A model generated the notes under the pieces. The model had not been told where the DNA came from. It did not search any database and saw nothing but the letters and a program-made list of their open reading frames with translations. The translations under genes and the position numbers were made by a program. 64,000 nucleotides of DNA from the IMG/VR virus record IMGVR_UViG_3300045988_009603; one strand, written 5' to 3'. Origin of the DNA: a virus. Lineage: Duplodnaviria; Heunggongvirae; Uroviricota; Caudoviricetes. How positions within the stretch are numbered: the stretch's first letter is position 1; the number at the start of each line of letters is the position of its first letter. This document shows positions 2,795 through 61,577 of the stretch, piece after piece.

Positions 2795-2870
2795 TGGAGA
2801 ATCCGAAGGGACTCGAACCCTTATAAACCTGTTTTGCAGACAGGCACATAGCCATTTCTGTCACGGATTC
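2795..2870 (-). tRNA. tRNA-Cys (anticodon GCA)
   Basis: anticodon stem-loop CCTGT-CTGCAAA-ACAGG; T-loop TTCGAGT; U73 discriminator; CCA encoded. Confidence 0.75.
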
Positions 2871-2874
2871 AAAT

Positions 2875-2967
2875 TGGAGGAAGATACCAGACTTGAACTG
2901 GTACACCGATTTCTCAGCTACTGGCAGTTTAGCAAACTGCTCCCTTACCTTTTAGGGTTAATCTTCC
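2875..2967 (-). tRNA. tRNA-Ser (anticodon GCU), long variable arm
   Basis: acceptor GGAAGAT/ATCTTCC; anticodon loop TGCTAAA; T-loop GTTCAAGTC; about 93 nt. Confidence 0.75.
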
Positions 2968-2968
2968 A

Positions 2969-3703
2969 TTATTTCTGTAATGCGTTCTTCATTTCTGGTG
3001 TTGCAATAGTGTCGATTACACCAGTTTTACAAGCATCATCAAACCAGTCTGGTAAGATACCTGCTAAGAACCCATTGATATTCGTTTTAAGGTACTCTGC
3101 AATAAGGGCAGTTTCTTCTTCAATCATCTGCACAACTTCATCTGCATAAGCTGTAATCTTCGAGATACCTTCATTAATCTTACTAACAGCTTGGTTAGCT
3201 AAATCAGAAATAGTATCAAGACCTTTATCAATAGCATCCTGTAAGTCGCTTAATACATCATTAACGCCATCTAGTGTACTGTTAATTGTATCCATAGCTT
3301 TTTGACCATACTCTGTAGCAACACCCATAATACCACTAAATGGTGTACAACCAACTTGCTCTCCTGCTGCACCCATAACATTAGAGTAGCCTTTTGCTAC
3401 CTGCATACGTGATGAAAACTCATCAATGGACTTTTGACCATAATCTGTCAGTGTCTTAGTAGTTGATGTAGTGCTTGTCAGACTCGTTGTAAAGCTATTA
3501 AGCAGAACTGTTGTAAGTCCAGCAGCAATAAGCTTATCCTTTATTGTGGGGTCTGTTACAGAGCTAATAGAGCTTACAAGTGATGTAGAGGCAGCTACGG
3601 TTCCACCTAGAACTGCTGCACCAGTAATAAGGGGATTAGAAAACCCTCTACCGGTTTTTAAGAGATTAAAAATCTCCTTACCTTGTTCTGTCATCTCTTT
3701 CAT
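2969..3703 (-). CDS. hypothetical protein embedded in tRNA cluster
   Basis: ORF track 2969..3766; internal start MKEMTEQ at 3703 preferred because upstream part overlaps tRNA-Phe; Thr/Ser-rich, no recognised domain. Confidence 0.5.
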   Translation of the reverse strand: MKEMTEQGKEIFNLLKTGRGFSNPLITGAAVLGGTVAASTSLVSSISSVTDPTIKDKLIAAGLTTVLLNSFTTSLTSTTSTTKTLTDYGQKSIDEFSSRMQVAKGYSNVMGAAGEQVGCTPFSGIMGVATEYGQKAMDTINSTLDGVNDVLSDLQDAIDKGLDTISDLANQAVSKINEGISKITAYADEVVQMIEEETALIAEYLKTNINGFLAGILPDWFDDACKTGVIDTIATPEMKNALQK

Positions 3704-3719
3704 TAAGCACCTTTGAAAT

Positions 3720-3795
3720 TGGTAGTCCAGTGGGATTTGAACCCTCTTCTCATGTTTTTCAGACACGCGCTTTAACCATATAAGCTACTTGGACT
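3720..3795 (-). tRNA. tRNA-Phe (anticodon GAA)
   Basis: anticodon loop CTGAAAA; T-loop TTCAAAT; A73; T-stem has one non-WC pair so boundaries +/-2. Confidence 0.6.
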
Positions 3796-3801
3796 ATAAA
3801 T

Positions 3802-3877
3802 TGGGGTGACCTACGGGATTTGAACCCGTATAGACCATGTTCACAGCATGGGTCATTACCATTTATGATAAGGCCAC
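3802..3877 (-). tRNA. tRNA-His (anticodon GUG)
   Basis: anticodon stem CCATG/CATGG, loop CTGTGAA; T-arm ACGGG-TTCAAAT-CCCGT. Confidence 0.8.
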
Positions 3878-3908
3878 ATTTAAGGACTCTCGTAAGAACC
3901 CTTAGAAG

Positions 3909-3984
3909 TGGCAGCGGCATAAGGATTTGAACCTTAATAAGACAGCTTCAGAGACTGCTGCATTGCCAGTTATGCTATACCGCT
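3909..3984 (-). tRNA. tRNA-Gln (anticodon CUG)
   Basis: standard cloverleaf, D-stem GCAT/ATGC, anticodon loop CTCTGAA. Confidence 0.65.
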
Positions 3985-3989
3985 AAATT

Positions 3990-4068
3990 TGGTACTCCAT
4001 ATCGGATTCGAACCGATACATAACACAGATTTTAAGTCTGGCCTCTCTGCCAATTGGAGTAATGGAGC
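3990..4068 (-). tRNA. tRNA with anticodon UAA (Leu isoacceptor by anticodon), short variable arm
   Basis: anticodon loop CTTAAAA; D-loop CAATTGGCAGA; A73; T-arm ATCGG-TTCGAAT-CCGAT. Confidence 0.5.
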
Positions 4069-4070
4069 AT

Positions 4071-4146
4071 TGGCGGGGGATGTTGGAATTGAACCAACTT
4101 CTTCGATTTCAAAGACCGAGGTTTTAACCTTGTAAACTAATCCCCT
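4071..4146 (-). tRNA. tRNA-Gln (anticodon UUG)
   Basis: anticodon stem TCGGT/ATCGA, loop CTTTGAA; T-arm GTTGG-TTCAATT-CCAAC. Confidence 0.6.
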
Positions 4147-4154
4147 TTAAATCT

Positions 4155-4712
4155 TTACTTCCTTAGTGGATGAATAAAGAATGCCAACATAACTCTTTCC
4201 CTTGAGAATGCTCTTTCTTCTGGGACAACACTTTTAAGTTTCCATCCAACATAAATTCTCCAGTAGAATTGTTTACCAAAGACTTTAATTGATGGGATAA
4301 AGGCGAATAACCCCCAAGCATTACTGTTCCACATTAGGAGATAACCTGTCTGATTATCTTCATGGTCAGAACTTACGTTGATATTACCTTTCCACTTAGT
4401 AACATCTTTTACATCTCTTCCTAACACATGGTAAGAGAAGTTATAAGCTTTGTTTCTCCAGAGCCATCCAACTCTCTGCAAATAGACACCAAGCTTACCA
4501 ATCTTTCTAATCTTAGCCCATCTTTTAACGTGACCTTCATCACCATCAATTGGGTTGTCATATGTCTCCATCCATCTGAATCCAAAAGGTAGATGTCCTT
4601 TCTTCTCACTATAGAATGGAACTACAAAAGGTGCTAAGATAACTGCTAAGATTGCTGCCAATGGGTCTAGCAAAGCTAGGAAAATCCATGAAGCATACTT
4701 CAAATATCTCAT
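4155..4712 (-). CDS. hypothetical membrane protein embedded in tRNA cluster
   Basis: 185 aa ORF; hydrophobic N-terminus IFLALLDPLAAILAVILAPFVVPF; Trp-rich. Confidence 0.5.
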   Translation of the reverse strand: MRYLKYASWIFLALLDPLAAILAVILAPFVVPFYSEKKGHLPFGFRWMETYDNPIDGDEGHVKRWAKIRKIGKLGVYLQRVGWLWRNKAYNFSYHVLGRDVKDVTKWKGNINVSSDHEDNQTGYLLMWNSNAWGLFAFIPSIKVFGKQFYWRIYVGWKLKSVVPEERAFSRERVMLAFFIHPLRK

Positions 4713-4731
4713 TTAAATAGCCTCTTTAAAT

Positions 4732-4807
4732 TGGCGCAGGATAAGGGATTCGAACCCCTATTAACAGCTTCGTAGACTGTTGCTCTATCCATTTGAACTA
4801 ATCCTGC
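4732..4807 (-). tRNA. tRNA-Arg (anticodon ACG)
   Basis: acceptor GCAGGAT/ATCCTGC; anticodon loop CTACGAA; T-loop TTCGAAT. Confidence 0.75.
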
Positions 4808-4812
4808 AAAAT

Positions 4813-4890
4813 TGGTGTTCCAAGACGGATTCGAACCGTCACTAGTACAAGGTTTGAGCTTGCATCCTCTGCCAATTGGGATACTGGAAC
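4813..4890 (-). tRNA. tRNA with anticodon CAA (Leu isoacceptor by anticodon), short variable arm
   Basis: anticodon stem GCAAG/CTTGT, loop CTCAAAC; D-loop CAATTGGCAGA; A73. Confidence 0.5.
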
Positions 4891-4891
4891 A

Positions 4892-4966
4892 TGGTACTCA
4901 CTAAAGGACTTGAACCTTTTTCTTCATCTTGTAAGGGTGATGTTTTACCATATAAACTAAGCGAGT
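4892..4966 (-). tRNA. tRNA-Val (anticodon UAC)
   Basis: anticodon loop CTTACAA; T-arm AAAGG-TTCAAGT-CCTTT; one C-A mismatch in anticodon stem. Confidence 0.6.
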
Positions 4967-5061
4967 ATGAAAGAGGTCTGAAGTTGTGCCGCTAACTCAA
5001 CTCCGTGGAATTTGTTACGGTCTTCAGTTGACACCAGCGGTCTTTCACTTGACCTCTGAAT
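4967..5061 (-). ncRNA. structured non-tRNA spacer (pseudoknot-like crossed helices)
   Basis: no T-loop motif; crossed complementarities CTGAAG/CTTCAG and GCCGCT/AGCGGT plus outer GAGGTC/GACCTC. Confidence 0.3.
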
Positions 5062-5138
5062 TGGTGCTGCTCACAGGACTCGAACCTGCATTTCCATCCT
5101 TACAAGGGATGTGTAATAGCCAATTATACGAAAGCAGC
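5062..5138 (-). tRNA. tRNA-Thr (anticodon UGU)
   Basis: anticodon stem CATCC/GGATG, loop CTTGTAA; T-arm GCAGG-TTCGAGT-CCTGT. Confidence 0.8.
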
Positions 5139-5139
5139 A

Positions 5140-5553
5140 TTAAACTTTTATGATACCAGCATGTACTTTTCTGTGACAGTTAGCGCACAAGACAATGCAC
5201 TTTCTGATTTCATCTTTTAATCTTTTTGTGGAGTATGAATAAAGTGATGCAGGATTCAAATCTTTCTGGGAAGGGTCTGTATGGTGTAAATCCAATGCAA
5301 CTGGTTCTTTCTCACCACATATATGACATTTGCATAAAGCTTTGTACCTTCTAGCTAGAGTCTTGTTATACTCTCTCTTGAAGTTACGAGTACTTTTAAT
5401 AGCCTCTTTCCTTTTATCATTTGCTTGATAACTCTTTGCATCACGAAGTCTTGCACAGTCTTTGCATTGACTTTGAAGACCATCTTTCTTGTTCTTATTC
5501 TTATGGAATAAGCTTTCATCTTTTGGTATTCTGCAAGTACTGCATATTTTCAT
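5140..5553 (-). CDS. HNH endonuclease embedded in tRNA cluster
   Basis: 137 aa; Cys-rich, LDLHHTDP...CANCHRKVH HNH motif. Confidence 0.75.
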   Translation of the reverse strand: MKICSTCRIPKDESLFHKNKNKKDGLQSQCKDCARLRDAKSYQANDKRKEAIKSTRNFKREYNKTLARRYKALCKCHICGEKEPVALDLHHTDPSQKDLNPASLYSYSTKRLKDEIRKCIVLCANCHRKVHAGIIKV

Positions 5554-5567
5554 ATCACACCTTAATT

Positions 5568-5642
5568 TGGAGCATCCAGAGGGAATCGAACCCTCAACCT
5601 CAGTTTGGAAGACTGTAATTTTCCCGTTTAAACTATGGATGC
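5568..5642 (-). tRNA. tRNA-Gly (anticodon UCC)
   Basis: acceptor GCATCCA/TGGATGC; anticodon loop CTTCCAA; T-loop TTCGATT. Confidence 0.7.
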
Positions 5643-5648
5643 ACTAAT

Positions 5649-5724
5649 TGGTGGAGTCACTGAGAATTGAACTCAGTTACCGAGTTTGCAAAACTCGAAT
5701 TTTAACCATATAAACTATGACCCC
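5649..5724 (-). tRNA. tRNA-Ala (anticodon UGC)
   Basis: anticodon stem CGAGT/ACTCG, loop TTTGCAA; G3-U70 pair in acceptor stem. Confidence 0.8.
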
Positions 5725-5730
5725 AATGTT

Positions 5731-5806
5731 TGGTACAGGTGGAGGGAATTGAACCCATCGTCTTACTGATTAAGAGTCAGCCGCATAACCATTTTGCTAC
5801 ACCTGC
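5731..5806 (-). tRNA. tRNA-Lys (anticodon CUU)
   Basis: anticodon loop CTCTTAA; paralogous to the UUU copy at 6957-7032; T-stem only GGG/CCC. Confidence 0.6.
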
Positions 5807-5813
5807 ATTAATT

Positions 5814-5891
5814 TGGTAGGAGACAAGGGATTCGAACCCTCAAACACCAACTTCTAAGGATGGTAGGTTTACCAATTACCGTCAATCTCCC
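5814..5891 (-). tRNA. tRNA with anticodon UAG (Leu isoacceptor by anticodon), short variable arm
   Basis: anticodon loop CTTAGAA (stem has U-U mismatch); T-arm GAGGG-TTCGAAT-CCCTT; D-loop TAATTGGTAAA. Confidence 0.45.
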
Positions 5892-5966
5892 ATTAAATCT
5901 TTTTAGAGAACTTCTAAGAACCTAAGCAACAAGGTTCCACAACAAGCTGTAATAACCTTAGAAGCC

Positions 5967-5990
5967 CTCTAAAAAGACCTAAATAGGTCT
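5967..5990 (-). terminator. internal terminator-like hairpin in tRNA operon spacer
   Basis: minus-strand AGACCUAUUUAGGUCU followed by U5. Confidence 0.45.
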
Positions 5991-6146
5991 TTGCATAGTC
6001 TTGTTTAATCCGGTGACTAGAACCTTTGGAGAGCTTGATATTATCTCTTCTCCGTGACACCTACTAGGTGCTTTATCAGTGTGTACGACAATACACGAGG
6101 GATACCAAAGCAACATCCGAATGAAGCTTGGCTTTAAATCTTATTA

Positions 6147-6236
6147 GGCGGTAAGTAAAGGAGTCGAACCCTCACCGTATCTCTACAGTGGCAACAGTTT
6201 TCAAGACTGTTTGGCTGCCATTAGCCGCTACCTACC
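6147..6236 (-). tRNA. tRNA-Ser (anticodon UGA), long variable arm
   Basis: anticodon stem ACAGT/ACTGT, loop CTTGAAA; about 90 nt; G73; 3' CC encoded, terminal A not. Confidence 0.7.
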
Positions 6237-6249
6237 CCTAATAAGACTT

Positions 6250-6332
6250 TGGCATGGGACGGAGGAGTTGAACCCCTTTGAAACGGTTTTGGAGGCCGTT
6301 GCTCATGCCTTAGAGTCTTAACATCGTCCCAC
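6250..6332 (-). tRNA. tRNA-Trp-like (anticodon CCA) with extra nucleotides between acceptor stem and D-stem
   Basis: anticodon arm ACGGC-CUCCAAA-ACCGU resembles E. coli tRNA-Trp; acceptor GTGGGAC/GTCCCAT; about 7 nt longer than canonical. Confidence 0.45.
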
Positions 6333-6474
6333 ACTATAATTCGAAGCTTACCGTATTTTCGCAACACTGTAAAGCCCCTTCTCAGATTATTTACATGTTC
6401 TGGAAAACATGAGATACAGACCACCTCCTTACACGGAGACCCGATAAGGTCGTCTAAGCAATCTGCTAACTATT

Positions 6475-6551
6475 TGGCACACCCTACAGGATTCGAACCT
6501 GTAACTAACGATTTAGAAGACCGTTGCTCTATCCAATTGAACTAAGGGTGC
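6475..6551 (-). tRNA. tRNA-Arg (anticodon UCU)
   Basis: canonical D-arm GTTC-AATTGGATA-GAGC; anticodon loop CTTCTAA. Confidence 0.8.
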
Positions 6552-6798
6552 ATTAATCTTTAAAGACTCTCTTAGAAAGCCCTTAAAGATGCCCACCTTA
6601 TTAATCATACCGTGGGCGAGTACGCCAAATTCTTTGATGAGGGATTGGAAGACCTCACTGGTGTTTAGCCTATCAAGCTACTGCCAGAAAAACATTGTCG
6701 TTTGCATTTATTTTAAATTTGCAAAATAGACGCTACGCAACGAAAACTAAGGTTACTATAAAGTGGTCACATGTTAATGTCAACAACTTTATTGAAAT

Positions 6799-6874
6799 TG
6801 GTACTGGTAGGTGGAATCGAACCACCGATGTTCCCTTATCAGGGGAGTGTTATAACCTTCTTAACTATACCAGC
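6799..6874 (-). tRNA. tRNA-Ile (anticodon GAU)
   Basis: anticodon loop CTGATAA; T-arm GGTGG-TTCGATT-CCACC. Confidence 0.8.
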
Positions 6875-6875
6875 T

Positions 6876-6952
6876 TGGAGGTTCAGATGGGAATCGAACC
6901 CACATTCATAGGGCTTATGAGACCCCTGCATTACCTTATCTGCGACTGAACC
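6876..6952 (-). tRNA. tRNA-Met (anticodon CAU; elongator Met or Ile2 not distinguishable)
   Basis: acceptor GGTTCAG/CTGAACC; anticodon loop CTCATAA. Confidence 0.7.
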
Positions 6953-6956
6953 ATAT

Positions 6957-7032
6957 TGGTAGAAGTGGAGGGATTCGAACCCATCGCCTGTCAGATTAAA
7001 AGTCTGCCGCATCACCATTCTGCTACACTTCC
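6957..7032 (-). tRNA. tRNA-Lys (anticodon UUU)
   Basis: anticodon loop CTTTTAA; same unusual T-stem as the CUU copy. Confidence 0.65.
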
Positions 7033-7179
7033 ATTAAATTATCTTTGTAGATAAGCTACCCAGACTTGCTTAAGGTCTGTAGCGATGTGCTTTGTTGGGT
7101 TTAAATCTAGAATTTACCCTTTCACCCTTTGTGGTCGCATACTCACAGGTAAGCTTAATAACTTATCTACAAAGATAAT

Positions 7180-7316
7180 TACCAGACCGTTGTTTATCAT
7201 CTTAAGTGCTACCATTACACCAACTCGACATCTGCCGAGTGAAGGAATCGAACCTTCGCCTTTTCTTTACCGGAGAAATAGATTGTTTAAGTTTTGCTGT
7301 AAACGGTCTTCTGTAA
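7180..7316 (-). ncRNA. tRNA-like element with permuted arm order, enclosed by a terminal inverted repeat
   Basis: minus strand reads terminal stem AGACCGUU, T-arm GAAGG-UUCGAUU-CCUUC, ACUCGGC, AGAU, GUCGAGU, D-arm-like GUGUAAUGGUAGCAC, closing AACGGUCU; no canonical 5'-to-3' cloverleaf. Confidence 0.3.
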
Positions 7317-7490
7317 ATTTGTTGAGCCAGACCAAGTTTTAAATTTTTTCAAAATTAAATTGGCTTGAAAATATCATACGTACTTGCTGAATTTGGTCTT
7401 CTGCTCCTTTAAAGAATACTCGTAAGAACTCTTTAAGGGAGGGGCTAAATAGCCCTCTCAAAACATCATCTTGAAATACTTATTATAATT

Positions 7491-7568
7491 TGGCGGTTAC
7501 GAAGGGATTTGAACCCTCATCATCTCCCGTGACAGGGGAGTATTTTAACCAGATTAAACTACATAACC
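7491..7568 (-). tRNA. tRNA-Asp (anticodon GUC)
   Basis: anticodon stem CTCCC/GGGAG, loop CTGTCAC; G73. Confidence 0.85.
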
Positions 7569-7574
7569 TTTATT

Positions 7575-7662
7575 TGGTGTGCCGTGTAGGAGTCGAACCT
7601 ACCGAGTCTCAATGACAAGGGATTTACAGTCCCCACCGCTACCATCTACGGGATAACGACAC
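7575..7662 (-). tRNA. tRNA-Tyr (anticodon GUA), long variable arm
   Basis: anticodon loop CTGTAAA; T-arm GTAGG-TTCGACT-CCTAC; about 88 nt. Confidence 0.8.
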
Positions 7663-7671
7663 ATTTAAATT

Positions 7672-7748
7672 TGGCGGTTAGTCAGGGATTCGAACCCTGT
7701 GCCATTCGCTTAACAGGCGACCGCACATACCTTATGTGCTTCCTAACC
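7672..7748 (-). tRNA. tRNA-Asn (anticodon GUU)
   Basis: D-stem GCAC/GTGC; anticodon loop CTGTTAA. Confidence 0.8.
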
Positions 7749-7825
7749 TTAATACATTGCCAGACCGTGTTTTTTCTTTTATCCGCAAAAAGTAGTTTGT
7801 TGCTGCATACGGTCTTCTGCAAAAT

Positions 7826-7902
7826 TGGAGGCGGGTGCAGGAGTCGAACCTGCCGATACCATGCTAATGAGACATGTGAGACGCCCTTTCTCTATACCCG
7901 CA
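7826..7902 (-). tRNA. tRNA with anticodon CAU (second Met-type; initiator or Ile2 possible)
   Basis: anticodon loop CTCATTA; T-arm GCAGG-TTCGACT-CCTGC; 1:72 mismatch. Confidence 0.55.
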
Positions 7903-7993
7903 ATTCTTAATGACCAGACCAAATATCTTCTTTGTCCGATTTATCTTCAGATGAATAAGATTAAGTTTGCTGCAATTGGTCTTCTGTCAAAAC

Positions 7994-8071
7994 TGGCGTT
8001 CCAGAAGGGATTTGAACCCTCAAATATCCACTTTGAAAGAGTGGTGACTTTACCGTTTTGTCTACTGGAAC
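7994..8071 (-). tRNA. tRNA-Glu (anticodon UUC)
   Basis: anticodon stem CCACT/AGTGG, loop CTTTCAA; acceptor GTTCCAG/CTGGAAC. Confidence 0.85.
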
Positions 8072-8078
8072 ATTAATT

Positions 8079-8155
8079 TGGTCTCTGTTGGAGGACTTGA
8101 ACCTCCGGCCTTACCGCCCCAAACGGAACGCTCTACCAAGCTGAGCTAAACAGAG
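8079..8155 (-). tRNA. tRNA-Pro (anticodon UGG)
   Basis: canonical D-arm GCTC-AGCTTGGTA-GAGC; anticodon loop TTTGGGG. Confidence 0.75.
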
Positions 8156-40939: not shown

Positions 40940-41548
40940 TTATTTTTTCTTACAATTGTCAAAATGATATCGAGTCATGTTACCAGCACCACCAGTCATA
41001 CCACAATGAGGGCAAGTTTTCTTTTTCTTTGGCTTTTTTCCGGCTTCTGACATCTTCTTCCTTGTTTCTATAGACCTTTTACAACCTTTTGATTTTGTAT
41101 TGCCTATTTGAGATTCTCCTAACCGTCTTCGATGTTCTTCAGTGAAAACCCTACCTTTATTCACAATAGATAGAGCTTTCGAGTTCAAAGCCCTTACCTT
41201 TTCATAGTCTCTGGATGATATTTTCCTATCTAGGCCATCATGGGCTAACCTGTTCCATGCAAACCATAACTTATGATTGTTTGGATACATCTTAACCAGT
41301 AATTTATGAGCTATATAATGCTCTCTAGGTGTAAGTAAAGCAATATTATCTCCACTAATTTTATCGCCACCTAGACATACTGGTGTGATATGGTGTCTTT
41401 CATAACCCTTACCTTGACATTTGTAGTATGTAAGAGGCACACCCCTTTCAGAATGTGCCTTCTTAATAATTGCATTATATATTAGTTCGTAATTCATTTG
41501 TATGCTACATAGAAACCCTATCCTTAATTTCTGCCATCTTAGCGTCAT
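40940..41548 (-). CDS. HNH homing endonuclease with NUMOD-like repeats
   Basis: ERHHITPVCLGGDKISGDNIALLTPREHYIAH; repeated basic K/R helix motifs; overlaps 3' end of nrdD. Confidence 0.7.
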   Translation of the reverse strand: MTLRWQKLRIGFLCSIQMNYELIYNAIIKKAHSERGVPLTYYKCQGKGYERHHITPVCLGGDKISGDNIALLTPREHYIAHKLLVKMYPNNHKLWFAWNRLAHDGLDRKISSRDYEKVRALNSKALSIVNKGRVFTEEHRRRLGESQIGNTKSKGCKRSIETRKKMSEAGKKPKKKKTCPHCGMTGGAGNMTRYHFDNCKKK

Positions 41549-56908: not shown

Positions 56909-57331
56909 TTATTTCTCTCTCAGTTGGTTAAGTTTCTTTCTAGAACATTTTAAGTTTTCTGATGAAGAAAAGTCAAGTGTCTTTTCAGAACGTGGATAGT
57001 AATGTCTATCCCAAGAAGTTTCAACATCGTTAATCAGTGACGCTAGATTACACAGGTCTGTACCACTTTGCAACCTCTTTTTAAGAGAATCTAGTAAAGC
57101 AACTGTATCTTTAGCTTTACGCCTTGCTGTAGCAACATCTTTCATATGCTCAAATACAGAGCATTTTAAGTCATCTTCATAGTTTTCAGACAACTCTATT
57201 TCATGTTGTATATCAACCATCCTCCTGTGATGGTGAGCATATTCCCGTTGAGCAGCAATGTCAAGTTCTTCCAACTTCTGCAAAGCTCTAACAAAGTCAG
57301 CTATGTCTGGGTGAACAAACATTTTCTGCAT
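56909..57331 (-). CDS. hypothetical protein
   Basis: 140 aa ORF. Confidence 0.5.
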   Translation of the reverse strand: MQKMFVHPDIADFVRALQKLEELDIAAQREYAHHHRRMVDIQHEIELSENYEDDLKCSVFEHMKDVATARRKAKDTVALLDSLKKRLQSGTDLCNLASLINDVETSWDRHYYPRSEKTLDFSSSENLKCSRKKLNQLREK

Positions 57332-57493
57332 GTAAGCCTCTTTTAAGTAACTATTAAGTTTTAATCTTTTATCTTAACGTATTCTATACGTTATACTTTA
57401 AAGCTTTTTAAAAGCTATTAAATAATCTTTTAAGAGTTTTAAAGTAACTGTATAGTTAAACTGTTAAGTAACCTTTTAAGTAAAAACCCACTT

Positions 57494-57530
57494 CGCAAAG
57501 ATTAACACCTTGTCAAGTACATTGTCAACT
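57494..57530. promoter_or_regulatory. divergent promoter region with conserved TTGTCAA direct repeat
   Basis: CCTTGTCAAGTACATTGTCAAC...TATAAT; near-identical motif at 10321-10350. Confidence 0.4.
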
Positions 57531-57587
57531 TGCTTTTTATAATTTTTTGCAGTAATGTATGAGGTTAATGAATTAGAGGGAGTACAA

Positions 57588-59730
57588 ATGGAAAACGTAG
57601 ATTTTAAAAACTTACACTTAGTTGGTGATACAGAAACTGATGGTTTACTCCTTGAGTTCACTAAAGTCCACGTCATGGCTTTCGCAGACTATAAATCTGA
57701 CGATGAAGAGCCACCTGTATGGGTCTTTACAGATGAGCCTATCCTCGGTCACAAGTATACCAAGTACATTAAAGGTGGTTTGCGTGAAGGTATTGAGTTT
57801 GCGTTAAAGGCAAAACGGCTTTGCATCCATAATGGTCTGGGGTATGACTGGTGGGTTTTCAATCACATTGCACCTGATTTGTGGAACTTTGATAATCCAA
57901 AGTGTAAGCCGTGGAGTAATTTCTTTCAGGATTCTCTTATCCAGTCTCGTGTTCAGTGGATGGATAGACCAACTCCAAAAGGCTATAAAGGTGCTCATGG
58001 CTTGGCAGCATGGGGTGCTCGTGTTGGTGTACGTAAACCAGAGATTGAACATTGGGGTGTGTGGAATGCAGAAATCTTCACTCGTGTTGTAGAGGATATC
58101 CGTATTAACGCCAAAACTAAACGAGCACTGGATAATGAATATCTCAAGTTAAAGAAGTGTGGTATAGACACTTATGAAACCTATATGCGAGCTAAAGAGA
58201 CATCTTTCTGGATGAGTCAACAAGCTATTAATGGTTGGAAAGCTGATAAGGAGCTTATGGAGTTCCATGTAAAGGAACTTGACAAGTTGACTAATGAGCT
58301 TGCTTCAGAAGTTGAACCACACCTTCCACCAACTATTAAGACCAAAGGTAAAGTCACTGGAGAAGAGTTTGCAAAAGCTTGGAATGAGTATGTTGAAGCG
58401 TTTGGTCATGCAGATGGACTGAAAAGAATTACCAAGTACCCTAAGACAAAGTATCGTCAGCAGGTACGTAACGGTGAGATGCAGACATATGAAATCAAGC
58501 CATTTGGTAAGCCAACTACAAAGATTTTTAACATTGAAAAGCGGAATTGCTATACACCAACCAACACTGTAACTGGCGAAGAGTACAAAGAAGGTTTTGT
58601 AGCAATGAAGGATGCTCGTGCAATTTGCAATGAGTTGAATGCAAAGATTGGTAAGAAATGCAAAGACTGGAAGCCAGTAAAAACAGTCAAAACTGTGAAG
58701 TACTATAACAGTCACGTTGTTAACCACTTTGAACTTGAGTCAAGTCGCTACACAGGATTGATTGATGCACCATATACACCAATTGAGTTTGAAGTTTCTC
58801 GTATGACTCAGGTAGCAGTTGTTAAAGACTACTTGAAATCAGTTGGTTGGATTCCAGATGACTGGAACTACAAGAAAGACTCAGACGGTCGCCCTGTCAA
58901 AGTTTGTCGTTTCAAAGACAATAAAAAGATGATTACAAAGCATCCTAAGTGGCAGGAGATGGTTGAGCGTTGTGGATTGAGCTATGTTGAACATGAAGGT
59001 GTACAGTACATTGAGCATAACTGGTCTGTGAAGAAGTACACAGATTTGCTTGAACCTTGTCTGATTAGGACTTCACCAAAACTTACTGAATCATCTTATG
59101 ATACGATTGAAGGTGAGCTTGGACAGAAGATTGCTAAGTACTACACTTTGATGCACCGACGCAGAACTATTGAGAACTCAAAGGATGATGAAAAAGGTTG
59201 GTTGAACCAGATTCGTCCTGATGGTCGCCTTAGTGCTGGCGCAATGGTGTTTGGTACTTCAACTGGACGTATGACACAATATGGTATTGTAAACGTACCG
59301 TCTGGCGCTGCTGTCTATGGAGCACCCATGAGGGAAGTTTGGACTTGTGAAGAGGGTACTAATATTGTTTCAGCCGACATGAATAGCGCCCAACTTGTGC
59401 TACTGTGTAACTTTATGGGTGATAAAGATTTCACTAAAGCGGTGACAGAGGGTAAAGAAGAGGTTGAGTTTGTTAAACAAGATGATGGTAGATACTATTG
59501 CAAACATTTTGACCAGTATCTAAACCCAGCTATTGACAAGTATTTACATTATGATTCGGAAAATGACTTATACGTGGTGTACTCAGGGACTGATGCACAT
59601 ACTTTAAATAGTATCTACTTCAGTCTTAATAAAGAGGAAGACATCTTGACGTGTCGAGCTACTCAGGATACAAATCTTCTTCAAGAAATTAGTAAAGGTC
59701 GTAAGAAAGCCAAAAATGGCATTTATGCGT
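57588..59730 (+). CDS. DNA polymerase I family (family A), exon 1: 3'-5' exonuclease and N-terminal polymerase region
   Basis: Exo I VGDTETDG; motif A-like SADMNSAQLVLL; first half of motif B RKKAKNGIYA. Confidence 0.8.
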
Positions 59731-60534
59731 CAGTGGCGCATGTAAAACGTTGTGAATTGCTGGAAGCCTAAGTCTGTAAAGATATGGTAATCAGCAGCGA
59801 AGTCTCTGTTAGGACTCCTAAAACAAAGGAGAGAGAGACAATGGCAGGTTACGAAGAGAGATTATGCACTGAGTGTGGCACGGAGTTTAAACCATACCAA
59901 TACAATCAGAAACGGTGCAGAAGCTGTGTATTAAAATTTGACAGAAGGGCAGAACACAGGGTTCTTACTAAGAAATGCCCTAGCTGCGAGAAGGTGTTCA
60001 TGCCGAGAACAGCAAGGCAAGTTTATTGCTCTTCACATTGCGGTGAGAAAGGTAGAGTTAAAAATTACTACCTAAGAACATATGGCTTGGAAAGGGAAGA
60101 GGTTGAAGCTCTACTCCGCAACTGTGATTACAAATGTCAAATTTGTGGCGGTGAAGGTTTTATCATGAATGGTTCACGACACAAGGCTAAACTTGTTGTT
60201 GACCATGACCACAAAACCGGAAAGGTAAGAGGTATGCTATGCCACAATTGCAACAGAGCTTTGGGGTTGCTTGCAGATAGCGTTGATAATATGCAAAGAG
60301 CAATTGACTACCTAAGCAAATAATATAATTGTAGAGATTCCTAACAGAGAAACGTTCAGAGACTATCGAAAAGCATACTTAACGTATGAACTGAGTAGAG
60401 TAGGGTGGTAAGCTAATGACCATCCCCAAGTGCAACGGTAGCACCAATGCTACGTGATATAGTCCGACACTCCGTAGAAATGCGGAGAAGTTCATAAGAG
60501 AACTGGTACACCTTGCGAGTGTATTGACCAGATG
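59731..60534 (+). other. group I-like intron in DNA polymerase motif B
   Basis: exon 1 ends with U, intron ends with G; joining gives IYALLFGAGDEK (T7: IYGFLYGAGDEK); P7-like GACUA...UAGUCC in 3' region. Confidence 0.55.
59784..60323 (+). CDS. intron-encoded HNH endonuclease
   Basis: LVVDHDHKTGKVRGMLCHNCN HNH motif plus Cys4; true start may be MAGYEERL. Confidence 0.8.
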   Translation: MVISSEVSVRTPKTKERETMAGYEERLCTECGTEFKPYQYNQKRCRSCVLKFDRRAEHRVLTKKCPSCEKVFMPRTARQVYCSSHCGEKGRVKNYYLRTYGLEREEVEALLRNCDYKCQICGGEGFIMNGSRHKAKLVVDHDHKTGKVRGMLCHNCNRALGLLADSVDNMQRAIDYLSK

Positions 60535-61091
60535 TATTGTTCGGGGCTGGCGATGAGAAATTTGCTAAGACGATTAAAGCATCTACAACTGAGGAAGGTG
60601 CTTTAACTAAGCAAACATACTTTGTACGCCTCCCTAAAATTAAGAAGTTGATAGATGATTTAGAAGCAGACTTCAAAGCCACTAAGAAGGCTCTTGAAGA
60701 GGTATTTGGTAAGACTGCTGCAATCTCTAAAGGGGGGTTTGTAAAGGTTGCTGGAGCTTGGTTGTGGTGCAAATCTCCACATAAGTTATTGAATTATTTG
60801 CTCATGGGTTCGGAAAGTCAGGTTCAGAATGAAGCCATCAACCTTGCTTGTAGAAGAACTTGTGAAGAAGGTCTTACAAAGTTGAATGGTCGAAAACCAG
60901 CTATTGGTGCTAGATTGCTTTTGGCATATCACGATGAGAATAGTTGGGAGTGTCCAGAAGACATGACGCAGGATGTTAAAGCAGTAATTGACTGGATGTA
61001 TGGTCAAGCATCAAGAAATTTAGGGCTTAAGGAGGAAACTCTTGTAACTGGCACTGGTAAAGTTGGTAAAAATTGGCTTGAGGTACACTGA
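60535..61091 (+). CDS. DNA polymerase I family, exon 2 (second half of motif B, motif C)
   Basis: LFGAGDEKFAKTI; LLLAYHDEN (motif C HDE). Confidence 0.8.
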
Positions 61092-61152
61092 TTAGTATTG
61101 ACAAGGTGCTCATGGAAGAGTACCTTATACAATATCTTATATAGGAGGGCTT

Positions 61153-61362
61153 ATGAGCCACCGTGGAAGAACCCATGCAGCGATGATGAAAGGTGCTTCA
61201 AAGGAAACTATCAAGAATCGTAAACAGAAGTTGTTTGAGAGGATGAACAGGTTAATTGACAATTCATCTCTGTCAGGTTCTGAGAAGGTTTTCTTGAAAG
61301 GTAATCTGAAAAGCATTGCACAAGAGCTTATTGATATTGAATATTGGAGACACCAAAAATGA
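61153..61362 (+). CDS. hypothetical small protein
   Basis: 69 aa. Confidence 0.45.
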   Translation: MSHRGRTHAAMMKGASKETIKNRKQKLFERMNRLIDNSSLSGSEKVFLKGNLKSIAQELIDIEYWRHQK

Positions 61363-61577
61363 AACTTGCAGATGTTATCCAACAACTTCACGACAACTGC
61401 TACACTCCAGAGTTGATTCAAGAGATGCTTATTGTGGTGATGCCTAGTAAGTTCTTAAAAGGTTTTAATCGTGAGGCTTTAAAGGTCGCGCATATCCTTA
61501 TCGTTGACGGTAAGATTGCAAGAGACCGTACAGGTGTTCTTAAGGGTGAACGTATTGATATCTTGGAATTGCTATGA
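61344..61577 (+). CDS. hypothetical small protein
   Basis: 77 aa. Confidence 0.45.
   Translation: METPKMKLADVIQQLHDNCYTPELIQEMLIVVMPSKFLKGFNREALKVAHILIVDGKIARDRTGVLKGERIDILELL

Follow-up and report, generated by a model that had tools for sequence, protein, structure and literature searches.

A probable IA2-like group I intron with an Endo VII-motif endonuclease gene in motif B of a Felixounavirus DNA polymerase gene

Introduction

Between positions 57588 and 61091 of the IMG/VR virus record IMGVR_UViG_3300045988_009603 (64,000 nucleotides; "the window" denotes this whole stretch of DNA) the gene of a family A DNA polymerase breaks off within the conserved motif B and resumes downstream of an endonuclease gene. 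What is the nature of the interrupting element, and does the locus encode one polymerase or two polypeptides? The window is evidently a genome segment of a Felixounavirus (Felix O1-like myophages), its 3.7-kb polymerase region being 94–97% identical to that of, e.g., Salmonella phages OPT-SAL01 and BPS15Q2 and Escherichia phage JH2; most of these records list two polymerases together with an "endonuclease VII" (a "recombination endonuclease VII" in PMC5968733), an enzyme that one comparative paper took to act in mismatch repair (PMC8300805). The answer for which we argue, and which we hold to be very probably right, is that nucleotides 59731–60534 constitute a mobile group I intron, IA2-like and without P2, inserted in motif B of the polymerase gene. 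The group I interpretation had been put forward in an earlier note on this DNA and is now supported by the core elements, by P1, P10 and the terminal G, by covariation and by alleles devoid of the intronic open reading frame (ORF).

Results

The first part of the polymerase ORF ends at a TAA stop (59769–59771) after ...RKKAKNGIYASVAHVKRCELLEA, and a second ORF in a different frame, running from 60537 to 61091, carries FGAGDEK...; the break and the resumption ~0.8 kb downstream described previously are borne out by the ORF listing. The start at 57588, which has GAGGGAG 5–6 nt upstream and yields a product of 899 aa, the length annotated for phage PHB11, is kept, being preferable to ATG 57555, the start of a longer ORF, for which inspection of the upstream sequence revealed no GAGGGAG-type ribosome-binding site. 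Exon 1 (57588–59730, plus strand), as defined by its ORF, its Shine–Dalgarno (SD) sequence, its colinearity with PHB11 and its match to T7 gp5, has U59730 as last base, which is also the first base of a Leu codon, whereas exon 2 (60535–61091, plus strand) starts with UAUUG and proceeds through LFGAGDEK... to the stop codon.

Removal of the 804 nt between 59731 and 60534 gives GGC ATT TAT GCG T|TA TTG TTC GGG, i.e., GIYALLFG, the insertion, of phase 1, separating the Ala codon from the Leu codon in motif B (KNGIYA|LLFGAGDEK); the resulting nucleotide junction is ...TATGCGT|TATTGTTC..., the peptide across the predicted junction is NGIYALLFGAGDEK and the joined polymerase reads ...KAKNGIYALLFGAGDEK.... 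The spliced protein scores 57.9 bits against Pfam DNA_pol_A (cut-off 34.3 bits) as opposed to 18 and 26.8 bits, both below the cut-off, for the separate fragments, and its alignment with T7 DNA polymerase (gp5) is unbroken over the junction (RDNAKTFIYGFLYGAGDEK vs RKKAKNGIYALLFGAGDEK).

The insertion site is further defined by the intron-less polymerase alleles of related phages. PHB11, whose sequence ..ggtatctatgcac|tactgtttggtgca.. encodes GIYALLFGA (the site being also given as ggtatctatgcac|tactgtttggt = GIYALLFG), is exactly colinear with the spliced window, no codon being extra or missing; the intron-less site of the PHB11 type reads ..TATGCACTACTGTTTGG.. and its equivalent in the spliced window ..TATGCGTTATTGTTCGG.... 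Furthermore, a synthetic spliced junction used as query retrieves an uninterrupted polymerase from many Felixounavirus genomes, and Felix O1 has been credited with a single 906-aa polymerase and no reported introns (PMC3185647), correctly so for that strain. Thus, the PHB11 and T7 gp5 alignments and the Pfam score after joining agree with the earlier proposal that splicing after U59730 and after G60534 restores a colinear motif B, and the U at the end of exon 1 and the G at the end of the intron are confirmed in the sequence. A shift of the splice register by ±1 nt violates the U/G boundary rule or loses the A-L-L sequence of the intron-less alleles, and the proposed sites alone combine a U·G pair in P1, a terminal G and a frame colinear with the intron-less alleles (GIYALLFGAGDE).

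The insert (59731–60534, plus strand, like all the elements listed here) can be folded as a group I intron from P1 to P9, the helices from P3 to P9.2 having been drawn together with P1 and P10. P1 (59724–59742), as read from the sequence, pairs the exonic UAUGCGU (59724–59730) with the guide GCGCAUG (59736–59742) so that the wobble U59730·G59736 sits at the 5′ splice site; position 59730 is U in all intron-containing alleles and C in the intron-less ones, and the guide GCGCAU is common to the introns found at the same site in the IMG/VR contigs L010 and L031. P10, likewise read from the sequence, consists of 5 bp, two of which are G·U, between CAGUG in the P1 loop (59731–59735) and UAUUG at the beginning of exon 2 (60535–60539). 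No P2 was found in the window intron, which leaves no room for it. P3 joins CGUUGUG (59748–59754) to UGCAACG (60431–60437) and, besides being legible in the sequence, is recovered in the minimum-free-energy fold of a mini-intron. The region comprising J3/4, P4 and P5 (59755–59799), with the P element AAUUGCUGGAA and the Q element AAUCAGCAGC, is indicated by the Rfam alignment, by compensatory changes in RNAalifold and by the minimum-free-energy fold, and the same three sources place P4 at UGCUGG (59758–59763) with UCAGCA (59791–59796). The perfect 12-bp P6a, read from the sequence (UCUCUGUUAGGA, 59803–59814, with UCCUAACAGAGA, 60339–60350), bears the endonuclease ORF in its loop.

In the 3′ domain the Rfam alignment locates the R element GUUCAGAGACUAUCG at 60354–60368 (its core is read as GUUCAGAGACUAU) and, together with the related introns, the S element GAUAUAGUC at 60455–60464. 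The P7-like pair to which the earlier note had drawn attention is present as GACUAU (60361–60366) with AUAGUC (60459–60464) and is invariant in nine related introns. P7.1 (CAUAC, 60374–60378, with GUAUG, 60384–60388) is found in the minimum-free-energy fold and is followed by a GUA linker (60400–60402, read from the sequence) that leads to P7.2 (GGGUGGU, 60403–60409, with ACCAUCC, 60419–60425, loop AAGCUAAUG), which is supported by the fold and by covariation at 5/5 pairs among the relatives. The minimum-free-energy fold also contains P8 (60438–60453: GUAGCA, loop CCAA, UGCUAC), P9 (CUCCGU, 60470–60475, with AUGCGGAG ending at 60487), for which there are at least three covarying pairs, and P9.1 (GUUC, 60490–60493, with GAAC, 60500–60503), whose sequence GUUCAUAAGAGAAC is identical in the intron of Yersinia phage Yepe2; P9.2 (60504–60530) is followed by a terminal AUG, G60534 being the 3′ end. 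The presence of P7.1 and P7.2, joined by G-U-A, is the hallmark of subgroup IA2 (PMC3428280); the window intron has both helices so linked between P7 and P3′, and the insert is, by its predicted structure, IA2-like. The 9-nt P7.2 loop (60410–60418) is identical in the intron of contig L014, whose stem differs from that of the window at each pair (GGUGGU/ACCAUC in the window vs CACCAU/AUGGUG in L014), and may represent a conserved tertiary contact.

Could the endonuclease gene simply be a free-standing one, inserted so as to leave a polymerase made of two non-covalently assembling polypeptides, with no splicing at all? This alternative, which the earlier note had kept beside the intron, is in keeping with the many GenBank records in which two "DNA polymerase" genes are parted by an "endonuclease VII" (PMC5968733), and the ORF of exon 2 can indeed open at TTG 60537. 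However, the sequence read upstream of 60537 offers neither an SD sequence nor an ATG in front of exon 2, and it is motif B that is interrupted, midway through an O-helix region whose alignment with T7 gp5 is continuous. The distribution of alleles also speaks against it. When the intron sequence is used as query, ~100 records match at ≥80% identity, most of the 804 nt being covered in 41 of them and only the two intron ends in the remainder; altogether, the intron is present in ~100 of ~261 matching phage records, 41 times with the ORF. The ORF-less alleles retain at the identical site a non-coding insert (311 nt in Mushroom, 268 nt in tootiki) that has the same first and last bases as that of the window and scores as a group I intron, the boundaries being the same in the 268-nt, 311-nt and 805-nt alleles, and the deletions of Mushroom and tootiki take out the ORF within or at the P6a loop. 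Three states, namely an empty site, a full intron and an endonuclease-less intron, are therefore found side by side in one genus; their coexistence excludes, in our judgement, the free-standing endonuclease, to which we leave hardly any probability. In addition, the non-coding flanks of the ORF are 96–99% conserved, as opposed to 74–76% for the ORF and the exons.

The comparison of the window with phage EC6 bears on the function of the insert. The 5′ core is identical at 91/92 positions and the 3′ core at 188/196, whereas the ORF is only 74% identical in nucleotides and 79% in amino acids (64 synonymous and 33 non-synonymous codon differences) and exons 1 and 2 are 76% and 75% identical, respectively. 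The eight differences in the 3′ core comprise four in loops, one compensatory P8 pair and two transitions that keep a G·U or U·G pair, and none breaks a helix. Since the ORF lying between the two cores has diverged like the exons, recent transfer cannot account for the conservation of the cores; to judge from these differences, the intron RNA is subject to purifying selection, a pattern to be expected only of an RNA that must fold and splice.

These data also bear on whether the insert is a decayed, non-catalytic group I intron that would either need a host or phage factor or leave the polymerase gene of this isolate inactive. Such a reading can appeal to the fact that splicing is a prediction from sequence, to the weak P5 and missing P2, and to the score of the window under the Rfam threshold; on the other hand, a lytic phage cannot do without its polymerase, whose two exons have both kept an undamaged ORF, purifying selection on the core is strong, no helix-breaking change separating lineages with 24% exon divergence, and neither the catalytic core elements nor the U·G wobble nor the terminal G has been lost. 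Moreover, the P2-less intron of Pf-WMP3, a close IA2 relative, self-splices (PMC3428280). Decay is thus very unlikely.

The search with group I covariance models, which the earlier note had suggested, gave a positive answer for the relatives and a partial one for the window. Rfam model RF00028 (Group I intron; gathering score 50 bits) finds in the window the partial matches 59758–59850 (P4–P6; 24.1 bits, E 0.0012) and 60456–60485 (P7′–P9; 12.4 bits), whereas the ORF-less alleles, whose cores differ from that of the window by few bases, score 62.3 and 61.3 bits over the full model. A second model, R1, was built exclusively from seven polymerase introns of unrelated phages (Yepe2 and contigs L010, L014, L031, L034, L037 and L039, no Felixounavirus being included), whose junctions, like all those located outside the window, were inferred from P1 pairing, terminal G and reading frame. 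Searched against both strands of the window (128 kb), R1 produced exactly two matches: the polymerase intron (60349–60514; 32.5 bits, E 4.8e-6) and a site in nrdD.

Folding and covariation point in the same direction. RNAalifold, applied to the relatives and the window, predicts P7, P7.2, P8, P9, P9.1, P4 and P5, with compensatory changes at 17/28 pairs in the 3′ domain and 7/11 in the 5′ domain. In the seven introns of phages other than Felixounavirus the hand-drawn P7, P7.1, P7.2 and P9 have 96.6% of their cells paired, compared with 29–48% after sliding of the 3′ partners; both sides are changed in nine pairs, and the covariation score is matched by 0/500 shuffles. Furthermore, the unconstrained minimum-free-energy fold of the tootiki mini-intron recovers P3, P4, P5, P6, P7.1, P7.2, P8, P9 and P9.1, including every helix outside the P3/P7 pseudoknot. 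Within the genus, EC6 and Mushroom have a compensatory change in P8 (C60442–G60449 to U–A) and in tootiki the P6a pair U59803–A60350 is replaced by C–G.

Several observations weigh against the intron interpretation. RF00028 has no match at its gathering score in the whole window, and the scores above threshold belong to the near-identical ORF-less alleles and not to the window; this is accounted for by the ~525-nt ORF-containing insertion in P6a, which splits the match, and by the P7.1/P7.2 insertions. The short helix P5 is in part non-canonical, the mini-intron folds with a minimum-free-energy z-score of only −2.25, and the covariation within the genus amounts to just the two compensatory events, as the core is almost invariant. 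Translation of exon 1 runs on for 41 nt past the 5′ splice site, across P1, P3 and P4, to end at 59769 in P5, and could disturb folding. Finally, the ligation of the exons in Felixounavirus is, like the activity and target of the endonuclease, a prediction. As for the translation that enters the intron, in-frame readthrough past the 5′ splice site is familiar from phage introns, and in the present case it may couple splicing to translation.

The earlier note had assigned 59784–60323 to an HNH nuclease. An ORF does exist there (the maximal one, of 179 aa) and the fold of its product is HNH-like, but the start and the family have to be revised. ATG 59784 falls inside P5/P4′, and the start is most likely ATG 59841, as annotated in EC6, with the SD sequence AAGGAG (59827–59832) 9 nt upstream. 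The ORF of the putative homing endonuclease (59841–60323, plus strand; 160 aa and a stop codon) is defined by its PF02945 match, its DHHRN motif, its PDB matches and the start of the EC6 orthologue. The protein matches Pfam Endonuclease_7 (PF02945) with 71.7 bits (cut-off 23.6 bits), contains the motif CQIC-x17-DHDH-x6-R-x4-CHNCN at residues 99–138 and zinc-ribbon-like CxxC pairs at the N-terminus, and its PDB matches are the restriction enzyme Hpy99I and T4 endonuclease VII. It is by these features a member of the Endo VII-motif (DHHRN) branch of the HNH-like nucleases, with a predicted activity; given the DHHRN motif, which was defined, together with the family, by Fang et al. 2018 (PMC6083498), "HNH" is right at the level of the fold and imprecise at that of the family, the enzyme not being of the classical HNH_3 type.

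Concerning the expression of the endonuclease, a simple scan for sigma-70 promoters and terminators (57300–61400) detected neither of them within the intron, and the number of sites was below that in shuffled sequences. The idea that the SD sequence is sequestered by pairing of AGGAG (59828–59832) with CUCCU (59815–59819) is weak, the fold being no better than that of shuffles (z −1.63).

Discussion

Intein and group II intron, which might come to mind for an insert that encodes an endonuclease and interrupts a conserved replication-protein motif, are ruled out by frame and sequence and have a negligible probability: the insert is not in frame (stop at 59769–59771, endonuclease ORF in another frame, ORF-less versions in existence) and is devoid of intein blocks, and Rfam scans of the region and of the whole window gave no group II match, RF00028 being the sole intron match.

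If the insert is the group I intron proposed here, its activity can be envisaged as follows. The polymerase pre-mRNA would fold into a ribozyme and an exogenous guanosine would attack after U59730, held in P1 by the guide GCGCAUG; P10 would align exon 2, and joining of the exons after G60534 would produce a single mRNA encoding the 899-aa polymerase. The endonuclease, translated from the intron, would presumably cut intron-less polymerase alleles near GCAC|TACTG during mixed infection, and recombinational repair would transfer to the recipient both the intron and the synonymous changes beside it (GCG T|TA TTG), these co-converted changes also supplying the U needed for P1. Indirect signs of such homing are the coexistence of empty, full and ORF-less sites in one genus and the synonymous differences fixed beside the junction (GCG T|TA TTG TTC in intron-containing alleles vs GCA C|TA CTG TTT in intron-less ones). 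We infer the catalysis of splicing in vivo, as well as the cleavage specificity and the mobility of the endonuclease, from sequence comparisons.

How does this element relate to the known ones? The nearest described counterparts are the IA2 introns with related endonucleases in gene 5 of T7-like phages. Gene 5 of phages PhiI and W31 (I-TslI) reportedly carries IA2 introns with Endo VII-motif endonucleases, as Bonocora and Shub are said to have described in 2004 and 2009. The gene 5 intron of Yepe2 (a Berlinvirus), for which the RefSeq annotation gives a two-piece join, is likewise located in motif B of a family A polymerase and resembles that of the window in lacking P2, in having P7.1 and P7.2 joined by GUA and in the entry of the ORF at P6a; the two endonucleases are ~51% identical over residues 44–159. 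Yet the Yepe2 insertion lies 11 nt upstream (ACG TT|T ATC vs GCG T|TA), the ORF of the T7-like introns extends into J6/7–P7 whereas that of the window stops 15 nt before the 3′ strand of P6a, and the window endonuclease has, unlike its T7-like relatives, 43 additional N-terminal residues containing the zinc-ribbon-like CxxC pairs; the host of the window intron is an Ounavirinae myovirus as opposed to the T7-like hosts.

With the endonuclease as query, IMG/VR yields phage contigs that likewise have a homologue between polymerase exons. In four of them (L010–L012 and L031), for which the literature search found no publication, insertion point and phase (TAT GCG T|..) as well as the guide GCGCAU are those of the window, whereas the endonucleases are 41–44% and the host polymerases ~25–28% identical to those of the window. 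Other relatives of the endonuclease (45–50% identity from residue 44) lie directly downstream of uninterrupted family A polymerase genes (IMG/VR loci L013, L015, L017, L018, L020–L028 and L030); T3 gene 5.3 reportedly has an arrangement that resembles such a free-standing endonuclease beside the polymerase.

F-CphI of cyanophage S-PM2, the DHHRN prototype (PMC6083498), has the same C-terminal CxxC...DHDH...R...CxxC-N as the window enzyme, to which it is 33% identical (tblastn), but it is free-standing beside an intron-containing psbA ("collaborative homing"), whereas the window enzyme is encoded inside its own intron. Phages Pf-WMP3 (I-PfoP3I), SPO1/SP82 (I-HmuI, I-HmuII) and Bastille (I-BasI) also combine a group I intron and an HNH-type endonuclease in a phage family A polymerase gene, and the Pf-WMP3 intron, for which those of PhiI and W31 served as models, shares with the window intron subgroup IA2, the lack of P2, the P7.1/P7.2 connection by GUA and the ORF at P6a (PMC3428280). 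However, these three cases concern another conserved site (E. coli position 674), and their nicking enzymes are of the classical HNH kind instead of the Endo VII-motif type. The PhiI and W31 introns have been assigned to "site 881 (E. coli numbering)" (PMC3428280), which does not fit the Yepe2 site in motif B (RDNAKTF|IYGFLYGAG), either the sites or the numbering being different; no claim concerning the PhiI and W31 site is made here. The T4 introns of td, nrdB and nrdD (sunY) are also self-splicing phage introns of the IA2 type in genes of nucleotide metabolism or replication, with an in-frame stop soon after the 5′ splice site and endonuclease ORFs that are optional; they too are present in some relatives and absent from others, and differ in their host genes and in the endonuclease family of td and nrdB (GIY-YIG).

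With the T7 sequence ACG TTT ATC TAC GGA TTT CTC TAC GGT as reference frame, the insertion points of the related IA2 introns, at least five within ~20 nt of motif B, are ACG TT|T in Yepe2 (L005), after the equivalent of TTT in L037 and L039, ATC T|AT in L034, GCG T|T in the window, L010 and L031, and CTT|TAT in L014. That a single lineage of IA2 introns with Endo VII-motif endonucleases has colonised at least five insertion points within ~20 nt of motif B in unrelated phages is a tentative suggestion, to which we give somewhat less than an even chance.

Some other features of the window deserve mention. The second R1 match corresponds to a 742-nt group I intron in nrdD (43194 to 42453, minus strand), detected also by RF00028 (35.4 bits, E 2.4e-5); the R1 score (71.7 bits, E 2e-15, 42617–42475) exceeds that of the polymerase intron. 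The exons of this anaerobic ribonucleotide reductase gene are 44391–43195 and 42452–41505 (minus strand), their splicing would give ...VISPMG|CRAFLSPY... in a 714-aa NrdD, and the intron contains an ORF for an HNH_3 + NUMOD1 endonuclease (43079 to 42615, minus strand); an HNH gene interrupting nrdD was mentioned in the announcement of phage Meda. At its 3′ end, exon 2 of nrdD overlaps with a 202-aa ORF (40940–41548, minus strand) that has a NUMOD3 motif and a weak match to colicin/pyocin DNase (HNH). Positions 2798–8155 (minus strand) hold 24 clustered tRNA genes, as is typical of Felix O1-like phages. In JH2, OPT-SAL01, Si3, SPT-1, VSe11 and others the region matching window positions 57500–61200 has 200–500 bp more; the matches are in two pieces spanning 3.9–4.2 kb, an additional "HNH/homing endonuclease" is annotated, and the extra segment suggests a further mobile insertion near the polymerase, not present in the window.

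The intron of this genus has been recognised before. In the literature found, this was the case only in the Meda announcement, where the polymerase gene is said to contain an intron with no ORF, and in Fang et al. 2018 (PMC6083498), who placed the JH2, EC6 and FSL SP-010 orthologues in their endonuclease clade and listed them as intron-encoded. Neither a structure nor a junction map nor a splicing experiment for the Felixounavirus intron turned up in the literature search, nor did any paper joining "Felixounavirus" with "group I intron" or "VpaE1" with "intron"; DNA polymerase, homing and HNH are absent from the VpaE1 and wV8 papers, as are introns from the Moreno Switt paper.

Conclusions

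General knowledge of group I introns is left unchanged by the present finding, the main value of which lies in annotation and in the experimental system that it offers. Mis-annotation of the locus is widespread in Felixounavirus records, including those of candidate therapeutic and biocontrol phages; its correct reading would be one polymerase gene plus a mobile intron, and the 59730/60535 junction and the helix map allow the records to be corrected. All three stages of the homing cycle are represented in coliphages and Salmonella phages that are easily grown, which makes them convenient for studying homing, co-conversion and endonuclease loss. Should the single-lineage suggestion prove true, motif B would represent a natural series in which intron and endonuclease are retargeted by a few nucleotides, transfer between phage families would be shown, because the exact site of the window recurs in polymerases only 25–28% identical, and the Felixounavirus alleles would constitute a tractable E. 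coli/Salmonella system for the pathway by which a free-standing endonuclease invades an intron.

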